DNA from: a virus
Lineage: Duplodnaviria > Heunggongvirae > Uroviricota > Caudoviricetes
IMG/VR virus record: IMGVR_UViG_2529293239_000011
Length of the DNA: 13,319 nt
Reading direction: 5' to 3' (one strand)
Below are positions 7,385 through 8,425 of the stretch, piece by piece. Position numbers and translations under genes: made by a program. Numbering within the stretch: position 1 is the first letter of the stretch; each line of letters begins with the position of its first letter. Below the pieces are notes generated by a model. It saw nothing but the letters and a program-made list of their open reading frames with translations, was not told where the DNA came from and did no database searches.

Positions 7385-7939
7385 ATGATTTACCCAACAA
7401 ATACAGGCAAAAGCGGGGAACACCTTCGTCTCACCACGCTGGAAAGTGTCTGGATTCAGGGAAAACTGCGCATGTGGGGGCGCTGGTCGTATATTGGCGG
7501 CGGTAAGACGGGGAATATGTTCAACCAGTTGTTGGCCTCTAAAAAGCTGACAAAAACGGCAATTAACGAGGCGCTCCGGAGGATGAAAAAAGCAGGTCTG
7601 AACAAGTCTGAACTTGAGGCTTTTTTGCGGGATATGATTAACGGTAAGCAAAAGAGCTGGCTGGCGCATTGTACTGATGCAGAGGCGTTATGTATTGATC
7701 GGGTCATAAGTGAGGTGCTGGCAGAGCATCCAGGATTGATTAGCGTCCTTCGGCAACGGTATGAGGGGCGGGGGATGACCAAACGCAAAATGGCTGAACT
7801 GCTGAATGATGCACACCCGAAATGGAGTTTAAGAACCTGTGAAAGACGCATTGAGCATTGGCTAAAGGTGGCAGAATTTATTTTGTACAAACCAATGGTT
7901 ATGGCTTTTGGTATAGAGAAAAAAGTTATTGCTTTTTGA
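7385..7939 (+). CDS. Late-gene antiterminator Q-like protein, 184 aa
   Basis: ATG at 7385 with AGGAAGG Shine-Dalgarno; an RWG-W motif near the N-terminus like Stx-phage Q as I recall it; followed by a short intergenic region, a strong terminator and tRNA genes, as in lambdoid late-control regions. The track ORF start at 7235 is read-through from IS600 and is rejected. Confidence 0.55.
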   Translation: MIYPTNTGKSGEHLRLTTLESVWIQGKLRMWGRWSYIGGGKTGNMFNQLLASKKLTKTAINEALRRMKKAGLNKSELEAFLRDMINGKQKSWLAHCTDAEALCIDRVISEVLAEHPGLISVLRQRYEGRGMTKRKMAELLNDAHPKWSLRTCERRIEHWLKVAEFILYKPMVMAFGIEKKVIAF

Positions 7940-8016
7940 CGTAAAAACTGCTTCAATTCTTGTACGCTTCGCAAAGCTGTACCGCGAGGCGAATAGCAGA
8001 CATGGACATTTGAAAG

Positions 8017-8041
8017 AGCCCGCTTTATGCGGGTTTTTTTA
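8017..8041 (+). terminator. Rho-independent terminator (tR'-like) between the Q-like gene and the tRNA cluster
   Basis: Stem CCCGC / GCGGG with loop TTTAT, followed by TTTTTTT. Confidence 0.65.
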
Positions 8042-8128
8042 TACCTGAAAAACGGCACAGGACGTTAAACGTGCTGGTGGTCAGATGGGTTTGCAGATGT
8101 GATGACATATGGTTATTATTCTGCCTCC

Positions 8129-8205
8129 GGCCCTTTAGCTCAGTTGGTCAGAGCGAGCGACTCATAATCGCCAGGTCGCTGGTTCAAGTCCAGCAAGGGC
8201 CACCA
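8129..8205 (+). tRNA. tRNA with CAU anticodon, resembling E. coli ileX-type tRNA-Ile2 (cannot exclude tRNA-Met from sequence alone)
   Basis: Cloverleaf with 7-bp acceptor stem GGCCCTT/AAGGGCC, anticodon loop CTCATAA, T-loop TTCAAGT, encoded CCA. Confidence 0.85.
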
Positions 8206-8206
8206 A

Positions 8207-8283
8207 CCACCACTAGCTCATCCGGATAGAGCATCAACCTTCTAAGTTGACGGTGCGAGGTTCGAGTCCTCGGTGGTGGGCCA
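8207..8283 (+). tRNA. tRNA-Arg (anticodon UCU, reads rare AGA codons)
   Basis: Acceptor CCACCAC/GTGGTGG, anticodon stem TCAAC/GTTGA with loop CTTCTAA, T-loop TTCGAGT, encoded CCA. Confidence 0.85.
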
Positions 8284-8285
8284 GC

Positions 8286-8361
8286 GCCGACTTAGCTCAG
8301 CAGGCAGAGCAACTGACTTGTAATCAGTAGGTCACCAGTTCGATTCCGGTAGTCGGCACCA
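8286..8361 (+). tRNA. tRNA-Thr (anticodon UGU), thrU-like
   Basis: Acceptor GCCGACT/AGTCGGC, anticodon stem ACTGA/TCAGT with loop CTTGTAA, T-loop TTCGATT, encoded CCA. Confidence 0.85.
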
Positions 8362-8364
8362 TAT

Positions 8365-8425
8365 GCGGGCATCGTATAATGGCTATTACCTCAGCCTTCC
8401 AAGCTGATGATGCGGGTTCGATTCC
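8365..8425 (+). pseudogene. tRNA-Gly (anticodon UCC, glyT-like), 3' end missing through IS911 insertion
   Basis: Intact 5' acceptor strand, D-arm, anticodon arm (loop CTTCCAA) and 5' half of the T-arm (GCGGGTTCGATTCC), then the IS911 left repeat begins at 8426; the 3' acceptor strand and CCA are absent. Confidence 0.75.

Follow-up and report, generated by a model that had tools for sequence, protein, structure and literature searches.

A probable orphaned late-control module with a DUF1133 gene and a rare-codon tRNA cassette in a decayed Shigella-type prophage

The Q gene and its late switch

The stretch of DNA analyzed here, a viral record of 13,319 nucleotides (IMG/VR IMGVR_UViG_2529293239_000011; referred to as "the window"), contains between positions 7,385 and 8,425 a gene for a predicted Q-type late antiterminator of the DUF1133 family, a candidate late promoter, an intrinsic terminator, and a cassette of four tRNA genes, the last of which is truncated. 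The segment is enclosed by the insertion sequences (IS) IS600 and IS911. In our reading, it is most probably the orphaned late-control module of a decayed lambdoid prophage of Shigella or enteroinvasive E. coli (EIEC), which occupies the Rac site and carries sitABCD at its right end. The Q gene and the late switch comprise the following features:

7385..7939 (+): intact gene for a Q-type late antiterminator of 184 amino acids; DUF1133, presumably the AntQ family
7929..7968 (+): candidate late promoter PR' and second -10-like hexamer, located by the composite pattern across DUF1133 loci
7929-7934 (+): PR' -35 hexamer, TTGCTT
7937-7944 (+): candidate Q-binding 8-mer TGACGTAA in the PR' spacer, overlapping the Q stop codon
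7952-7957 (+): PR' -10 hexamer, TTCAAT
7963-7968 (+): second -10-like hexamer, TACGCT, at the position of the sigma-dependent pause element of lambda PR'
7964..8040 (+): predicted leader transcript of about 75 nt ending at tR', deduced from the fold and the conserved terminator
8018-8040 (+): terminator tR', GCCCGC-tttat-GCGGGT followed by T7 (stem 8018-8023/8029-8034, T-run 8034-8040)

The Q gene has kept its ribosome-binding site (GGAAGG). Its product matches Pfam DUF1133 (PF06576) over the full length (E 4e-109, 362 bits), which is the best fit, and PF06530 (Phage_antitermQ) weakly (29.3 bits, cut-off 26), making membership in the latter marginal. PF06530 is the family of Q21 and Q933W (bioRxiv 10.1101/651190). 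The Q protein of phage 2851, which carries the Shiga toxin (Stx) genes stx2c, is a PF06530 protein at 87.5 bits, with a reciprocal DUF1133 match of 22 bits (cut-off 23.1). BLASTP aligned the window Q with this Q21-type protein over nearly its full length (24% identity, E 6e-8), hhalign of a profile of 21 DUF1133 sequences against it gave 96.9% probability (E 1.8e-10), and phmmer against PDB sequences matched Q21 (6P18, 6JNX) at E 3.6e-4. Judging from these comparisons, the DUF1133 Q is a remote relative of the Q21/Q933W antiterminators, and not of the Q933W/Q21 type itself. In complete relatives and in phage records, DUF1133 genes are located at the end of the early/nin region, directly 5' of the late operon with its lysis genes first; in the window itself, the late operon behind Q is deleted. 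Phage records annotate DUF1133 homologues as Q, and an identical Q protein is encoded by the complete prophage of E. coli CFSAN029787.

To describe the DNA downstream of such genes, a sample of 38 DUF1133 loci was assembled; 37 further loci came from species-representative genomes, in addition to phage and E. coli loci, and the genera sampled were Escherichia, Salmonella, Citrobacter, Klebsiella, Enterobacter, Serratia, Pantoea, and others. The pattern TTGnnn, 16-18 nt, TnnnnT, 4-8 nt, TAnG[CA]T occurred at the Q stop codon in 33 of the 38 loci, compared to 6 of 1464 control windows (0.4%) from the same loci. Lambda PR' consists of TTGACT, a 17-nt spacer and TAAATT, followed by the -10-like hexamer AACGAT, which causes a sigma-dependent pause; the DUF1133 pattern mirrors this arrangement, and TACGCT would be the counterpart of the pause hexamer. 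TTGACG (7936-7941) had been considered as an alternative -35 hexamer, but was rejected since alignment with relatives places the -35 element at TTGCTT.

The 8-mers in the promoter spacers of the DUF1133 loci fall into the classes TGAGCmAG, TTGCGCGG, and TTACGCAT/TGACGTAA. The first of these is similar to TGAGCAAA/TGAGCAAC, a tandem repeat found in the promoter spacer of phage 2851, and some DUF1133 promoters have TGAGCAAG where phage 2851 has its repeat. As the binding element of Q21 consists of two directly repeated 8-bp subsites (bioRxiv 10.1101/651190), the repeat of phage 2851 may, by analogy, be read as its Q-binding element. Among the DUF1133 loci, the 8-mer classes co-vary with Q residues 134-161, which lie within two predicted helices; because relatedness of the loci confounds this co-variation, the spacer 8-mer is held as a candidate Q-binding site only.

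The terminator tR' was detected by folding (z = -3.8 for 7940-8128) and by our own terminator scan. A consensus terminator scanner missed it, which we attribute to an upstream A-run that pairs with the T-run and lengthens the stem into the tail. About 30 of the 38 DUF1133 loci have an intrinsic terminator 45-110 nt 3' of the Q stop codon, the stem of which (ACCCGC/GCGGGT) hardly varies. When 23 leader sequences were folded to a consensus, only the terminator emerged, its stem showing conservation, not covariation. The stem persists almost unchanged across genera in which Q is only 50-60% identical, while the loop is free to vary (loci L027, L032, L046, and L049); the conservation is one of sequence and not of pairing alone.

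The leader of the window scored only 19.9 bits with the Rfam model of isrK (RF01394), and on account of this low-scoring match the other DUF1133 loci were searched for isrK. It was found above the cut-off (67-76 bits) directly 3' of DUF1133 genes whose products are 82-88% identical to the window Q, in Salmonella (L023; the homologue directly upstream of isrK is 82% identical) and in E. coli/S. flexneri (L018, whose leader sequence is shared by L020). In Gifsy-1, isrK is located immediately downstream of antQ, which codes for a Q-like antiterminator; overexpressed AntQ interferes globally with termination and is toxic. The short RNA IsrK has a promoter of its own and ends at a Rho-independent terminator which allows partial read-through (Hershko-Shalev et al. 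2016, PMC4825925). We infer that DUF1133 is the family of Gifsy-1 AntQ. By its position, IsrK would then be the leader RNA made from PR' in an AntQ (DUF1133) cassette, a place that in the window is taken by another class of leader. In L018 (3575-3776) and L023 (3588-3768, and again at 290-476), Q and isrK are followed by a P1/P7-type C4 antisense RNA with its a1/b1 target, that is, by an antirepressor-control module immediately behind the late terminator; in L023, two such isrK-C4 pairs are present at a distance of 3.3 kb. The Pfam family "of unknown function" is in this way tied to the Q21 and AntQ antiterminators, which is of value mainly for annotation, and the DUF1133 loci provide a testable map of promoter, pause-like hexamer, candidate binding site, and terminator.

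The tRNA cassette

Downstream of tR', the window contains the following features:

8091..8119 (+): predicted sigma-70 promoter of the tRNA cassette, TTGCAG, 17 nt, TATTAT, with a G+C-rich 9-nt discriminator to the tRNA 5' end (promoter scan)
8129..8205 (+): tRNA of the Ile2 type, anticodon CAU, with encoded CCA end (ARAGORN; Rfam 70.5 bits)
8207..8283 (+): tRNA-Arg (UCU), reading AGA (ARAGORN; Rfam 56.4 bits)
8286..8361 (+): tRNA-Thr (UGU), reading ACA (ARAGORN; Rfam 69.8 bits)
8365..8425 (+): tRNA-Gly (UCC), 5' 61 nt of a 75-nt gene, anticodon loop CTTCCAA (alignments; partial Rfam match)

With the Rfam cut-off for tRNA at 29 bits, the partial match of tRNA-Gly (29.3 bits, model positions 10-63) is just above it; its truncation was confirmed by alignment to intact 75-nt copies (L017, L022) and to CFSAN029787. 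Lacking the 3' 14 nt, which form part of the T arm and the acceptor strand, the gene is dead. An earlier sequence-only reading of the stretch had described a Q-like antiterminator followed by a strong terminator, tRNA genes with the anticodons CAU, Arg-UCU, and Thr-UGU, and a Gly-UCC gene cut by IS911 at 8426, and had considered the three intact genes to be still expressible. The gene calls agree with this description in every part, the DUF1133 protein being the antiterminator relative, and expressibility is made plausible by the promoter, which has been kept in its conserved form.

The hexamers of the tRNA promoter, their spacing, and the distance to the first tRNA are conserved in six contexts representing three unrelated spacer sequences. 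The promoter is found behind four differently annotated Q genes, namely, DUF1133, the Q21-type gene of phage 2851, a gene for a 229-aa Q (PPompW and Stx2a prophages), and a gene for a 250-aa Q (PhiR47_1), of which DUF1133 and the phage 2851 gene were covered by Pfam typing. As the tRNA genes have a conserved promoter of their own, they constitute a unit separate from the Q switch. In intact relatives, the cassette is also followed by a terminator. The layout of promoter, genes, and terminator is, as far as can be read from the motifs, that of a moron-like unit with a stable-RNA-type promoter, and the Ile2-led cassette of lambdoid and Stx phages travels with it. Only a minority of the DUF1133 loci have tRNA genes downstream of tR', in varying sets; these genes are cargo and do not belong to the switch. 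The moron layout predicts tRNA synthesis in lysogens and an additional boost from Q-dependent read-through; by virtue of the stable-RNA-type promoter, the tRNAs could be made even in prophage wrecks. Taken together, Q, late promoter, terminator, and rare-codon tRNAs are an ordinary, decayed example of a known arrangement, a lambdoid late switch combined with a tRNA moron.

In the body of the CAU tRNA, the pairs C4-G69 and C5-G68 are readable, which are reportedly determinants for TilS. Among the E. coli homologues sampled, which reach down to 80% identity, every one carries the annotation tRNA-Ile. These features point to an ileX-type Ile2 tRNA, which would decode AUA after lysidine modification. 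Ile2-CAU, Arg-UCU, Thr-UGU, and the ancestral Gly-UCC tRNA would provide decoders of AUA, AGA, ACA, and GGA for the prophage genes. In the late genes of the prophage, these codons occur at 6.6, 4.5, 13.1, and 13.1 per thousand, respectively (the chromosomal control comprising two genes), while typical E. coli values are about 4, 2, 7, and 8 per thousand. The use of these codons by the late genes thus is about 1.5- to 2-fold that of typical E. coli, and codon compensation fits modestly.

The fourth tRNA differs among relatives. In CFSAN029787 (L001 9994-10065) and in L055 (6000-6070), its anticodon is TAC rather than TCC, and it has G38 in place of A38; the Prokaryotic Genome Annotation Pipeline (PGAP) calls both copies a 71-nt tRNA-Val, and the CFSAN029787 copy moreover lacks 1 nt of the 3' acceptor strand through a deletion. 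An anticodon switch was our first reading of the CFSAN029787 gene; given the deletion in the acceptor strand, the fourth tRNA of the E. coli relatives is either a decaying tRNA-Gly or an anticodon-shifted one, decay being the likelier of the two. The window copy retains the ancestral Gly anticodon loop, and its 3' end is gone. In several DUF1133 prophages, the site between the Q/tRNA region and the lysis genes holds another kind of cargo, namely, copies of the small RNA STnc100 (RF02076), up to three in tandem (L017 4834-6191, L021 4289-4475, and L015 4431-4619).

IS elements, the 25-kb deletion and the prophage remnant

The segment is flanked by the following features:

6109..7372 (+): IS600, 1264 bp, 99.8% identical to annotated IS600, with terminal repeats
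8426..9671 (+): IS911, 99.5% identical to annotated IS911 over 1246 bp
9672..12166 (+): 3' fragment of ISEc11 (IS110 family) joined to ISSfl3 (IS66-like; tnpB remnant and tnpC)
12167..12250 (+): last 84 nt of the prophage tail-fibre (DUF4376) gene, by alignment to CFSAN029787; right edge of the deletion
1-1272 (-): int, left end of the prophage remnant
12462..13319 (-): sitD, last gene of the sitABCD iron/manganese transporter; prophage cargo, right end

IS600 is located 12 bp upstream of the Q start codon between duplicated 3-bp target sequences (GGA), the mark of a simple insertion; its flanks are contiguous in CFSAN029787. Its transposase gene reads towards Q, and the element cuts Q off from the upstream early/nin transcription unit. 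IS911, with the terminal repeats TGAAGTGG...CCACTTCA, starts exactly at 8426 with TGAAGTGG. Reading its flanks (TCC and GTT) revealed no target-site duplication; its left neighbor is tRNA-Gly and its right neighbor the interior of ISEc11. The missing duplication and the ISEc11 interior as neighbor indicate a rearrangement or deletion junction rather than a simple insertion. The ISEc11-ISSfl3 block also occurs on large plasmids of the EIEC/Shigella type, and NZ_JBLWKF010000002.1 contains a block that is 100% identical. Downstream of the tRNA genes, the order in the window is IS911, ISEc11 fragment, ISSfl3, the end of the tail-fibre gene, and sitD; genes for holin, lysin, terminase, or toxin were not found in this part.

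What has been lost is evident from E. coli CFSAN029787, whose Q-tRNA segment is 99.7% identical (3 differences in 1054 nt) and belongs to a prophage with a complete late region. There, DUF1367, ybcO (DUF1364), and Q are followed by four tRNA genes annotated as Ile, Arg, Thr, and Val (the last corresponding to Gly in the window), by about 290 bp with a terminator, and by genes for holin, lysozyme RrrD, Rz, terminase, portal, head, contractile tail, and tail fibre; convergent sitDCBA, uspF, and ompN come after the tail-fibre gene. Homology of the window to this prophage stops at 8425 and resumes at 12167, setting the deletion edges at 8425/8426 and 12166/12167, and where CFSAN029787 has 25,033 bp by record coordinates, the window has 3,741 bp of IS sequence instead. 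The same transition from tRNAs to holin is seen in E. coli O121 strain 201805972, with 87.9% identity over Q and tRNAs. Neither close relative has a toxin gene between tRNAs and lysis genes; the lost content was the late operon itself. The remark of the sequence-only reading that no toxin or lysis genes follow in the window was accurate, and its view of an emptied late-operon site holds insofar as late genes were lost downstream, not with respect to toxin-type cargo, because the relatives have holin, lysozyme, and Rz at this place. The assumption that IS911 simply occupies a cargo site had to be abandoned, as the element lacks a target duplication and marks the left edge of the 25,033-bp deletion.

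The exact Q protein is encoded by many Shigella and some E. coli genomes. A locus in CP162059.1 matches the whole window at 99.94% and is flanked on the left by ttcA, which adjoins the integrase gene, and on the right by sitDCBA, uspF, and ompN. In L005 and CFSAN029787, sitD is likewise followed by sitCBA, uspF, and ompN, and the left-end layout of ttcA and int with its flanks is common to both. With int and sitD in the window and ttcA and uspF-ompN as flanks, the window represents a decayed prophage extending from int to sitD. Going by the gene order of strain K-12, we take the ttcA/uspF location to be the Rac prophage site. The block of IS600, Q, tRNAs, IS911, truncated ISEc11, and ISSfl3 is present with identical junctions in seven differently rearranged Shigella-type loci, including that of S. 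boydii Sb227 (CP000036). The true cargo of the prophage is sitABCD at the far end, which survives in the window (sitD).

The following course of events would account for these features. In the intact prophage, early rightward transcription through hok/sok, rem, DUF1367, and ybcO would have yielded Q. RNA polymerase starting at PR' would have met TACGCT and, without Q, would have stopped at tR', releasing a leader RNA of about 75 nt. Q, loading probably via a DNA site in the promoter spacer, would have enabled the polymerase to read through tR', the tRNA cassette, and the cassette terminator into the genes for holin, lysozyme, Rz, terminase, head, and tail. Decay involved the insertion of IS600 at its position 12 bp upstream of Q, and an IS911-associated rearrangement which took the 3' end of tRNA-Gly along with 25 kb of late genes, so that Q, PR', tR', and three promoter-equipped tRNA genes remain, stranded among IS elements. 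The window illustrates how a sit-carrying prophage became immobilized, through loss of its late operon in an IS-mediated deletion that spared the sit cargo, Q, and three tRNA genes.

Several other features of the remnant were recorded. The left part (1247-3567) is a pile of IS pieces in place of the excision, recombination, immunity, and replication genes, comprising a 629-bp 5' fragment of IS600 (1247-1875) identical to 6109-6737, an IS3-family element of 1310 bp with an ALIL frameshift pseudoknot (Rfam 116 bits, 2211-2327), and an inverted 382-bp end of IS911 (3186-3567). The early region contains a full-length gene for a QueH-type epoxyqueuosine reductase at 3642-4328 (+) (PF02677, E 1.9e-65). 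E. coli normally uses QueG. QueH homologues were detected in 25 of 50,697 phage records, including one E. coli phage (HannyBb, 96.5% identity); at the matching position, CFSAN029787 has unrelated hypothetical genes. An apparently intact hok/sok type I toxin-antitoxin module is located at 4386-4739 (sok, Rfam 108.5 bits; open reading frame (ORF) of the Hok family, 4527-4739). The ybcO (DUF1364) gene 5' of IS600 (window 6024-6108, L004 9824-9987) is about 80 nt shorter than in CFSAN029787 (ORF of 65 aa versus 96 aa), a shortening which is independent of the IS600 insertion and due either to a deletion within the gene or to a mosaic boundary. Directly 3' of the sitD stop codon, at about 12421-12440, the window has a 10-bp tandem duplication (GCTGGCGGAC x2), of which CFSAN029787 has one copy.

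Alternative readings and comparison with known systems

That DUF1133 is some other small DNA-binding or regulatory protein which merely sits at the Q position seems very improbable to us. Pfam still lists the family as being of unknown function, and a structure search with a weak predicted model of Q retrieved neither Q21 nor any other relevant match, but the family shows full-length, profile-level homology with Q21, the cassette of promoter, pause-like hexamer, and terminator recurs 3' of DUF1133 genes across genera, phage records label these genes as Q, and the genetics of AntQ back an antiterminator role (PMC4825925). Still more remote is the idea that the tRNA cluster is an ordinary chromosomal tRNA operon beside phage debris. 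It could draw on the tRNA-Ile copies that all 5426 E. coli genomes possess, to which the Ile2 tRNA is about 90-92% identical and which we take to be the chromosomal ileX/ileY genes; against this, the cluster is found at every locus examined between a Q gene and the lysis/terminase genes of prophages or phages, its tRNA content differs from phage to phage, and in the window it lies inside the int...sit boundaries of the prophage. A toxin-type cargo as in Stx phages, once present downstream and then lost or replaced by IS911, is hardly to be expected either, even though phage 2851 offers a parallel (Q, tRNA-Ile, Arg, Arg, then stx2c), Rac-SA53, with a Q 69% identical to that of the window, has the pertussis-like eplBA genes before the holin gene and LT-IIa genes after the endolysin gene, and a DUF1133 Q has been listed for 13 Stx prophages in a published survey (PMC8136144). 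From the tRNAs, the closest complete relatives (99.7% and 87.9%) proceed to holin after about 290 bp holding only a terminator, none of the phage-collection records with DUF1133 is an Stx phage, and the lysis and virion genes account fully for the deletion. The window and its closest complete relatives are free of stx genes, stxAB between the Q/tRNA region and the lysis genes included. For this lineage a lost toxin is not supported, although toxin genes at or near this site are carried by more remote DUF1133 phages such as Rac-SA53.

The module might alternatively have been kept by selection in Shigella and EIEC, supplying AUA, AGA, and ACA decoders for AT-rich virulence genes, with Q possibly boosting read-through; we regard this as unlikely. 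An identical Q protein in the seven differently rearranged Shigella-type loci, the neighbors of which are deleted or inverted, the intact promoter and three tRNA genes, the retained ribosome-binding site of Q with IS600 transcription pointing into the gene, and the occurrence of the exact Q protein in 504 index blocks of the assembly collection would suit such retention. The loci were retrieved by the exact Q sequence, however, and are biased by construction; the divergence among the lineages (0.1-0.3%) is too low to detect constraint, the shared IS junctions are compatible with simple common descent, and the toxicity of overexpressed AntQ-type proteins (PMC4825925) runs contrary to useful constitutive expression. 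Because the loci are nearly identical and were collected by way of Q, the data neither support nor counter selective retention. If retention were true, three self-promoted tRNAs would aid the translation of AT-rich, horizontally acquired virulence genes. On this view, the IS-bracketed block would be a domesticated phage fragment and not debris, in which Q fed by IS600 read-through might modulate tRNA expression or act on host terminators.

We therefore favor an orphaned late-control module of a decayed lambdoid prophage, although a number of observations weigh against this reading or parts of it. Both PR' hexamers of the window are weak, matching the consensus in 4 of 6 positions each, and TACGCT matches in 3 of 6, albeit without loss of anything essential. 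A direct repeat of binding subsites in the style of Q21 is not visible in the window, which has one 8-mer without an evident second copy. The leader hairpin at 7965-7992 was not supported by the alignment-wide consensus structure. The link between AntQ and DUF1133 rests on the adjacency of isrK in a Salmonella strain other than SL1344, and the codon enrichment is modest, with a chromosomal control of only two genes.

Among known systems, Stx phage 2851 comes close, showing the order of Q, PR'/tR', and a tRNA-Ile2/Arg cassette with the same promoter, with 88-90% identity over the Ile and Arg genes. We take phage 933W to have a further Stx-converting late region of this kind. The proposal that the locus has the arrangement found upstream of the toxin genes in Stx phages is accordingly justified for the CAU and UCU tRNAs, which are homologous to the Ile and Arg tRNAs before stx in phage 2851, and not for the antiterminator, as the classical Stx phages have a Q of a different family. 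Moreover, they carry a second Arg tRNA where the window has Thr and Gly, and stx is present in them, unlike in the window. To Q21 itself, the DUF1133 protein shows remote homology over the whole length, and the two agree in gene position and in the type of cassette that follows; it differs by an identity of only about 24% and an insertion of about 30 residues after the first helix. Rac-SA53 (KU052037) shares with the window the Rac-type integration locus, the upstream genes hok/mok, rem, DUF1367, and ybcO, and the related DUF1133 Q. It is reportedly an LT-IIa prophage; it carries the toxin genes eplBA and eltIIa and no tRNA genes, and our own scan found no canonical tR' hairpin there.

The antQ-isrK region of Gifsy-1 resembles the window in its order of a Q-like gene, a promoter, and a short RNA that ends at a Rho-independent terminator. 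After the leader, Gifsy-1 continues with orf45, the anrP antirepressor gene, and a C4-type RNA, whereas the window has tRNA genes. Lambda 6S RNA and Gifsy-1 IsrK are the positional equivalents of the predicted window leader. The remnant as a whole is comparable to the pathogenicity island (PAI) sit of S. flexneri and EIEC, which has been described as an unstable, IS-rich, phage-derived, and rearrangement-prone island with sitABCD (PMC7545054). By the summary of Fisher et al. 2009 in this review, the window spans such an island from int to sitD; the passages of the review on its location give aspS and yecN as insertion sites (PMC7545054), while the island described here lies between ttcA and uspF.

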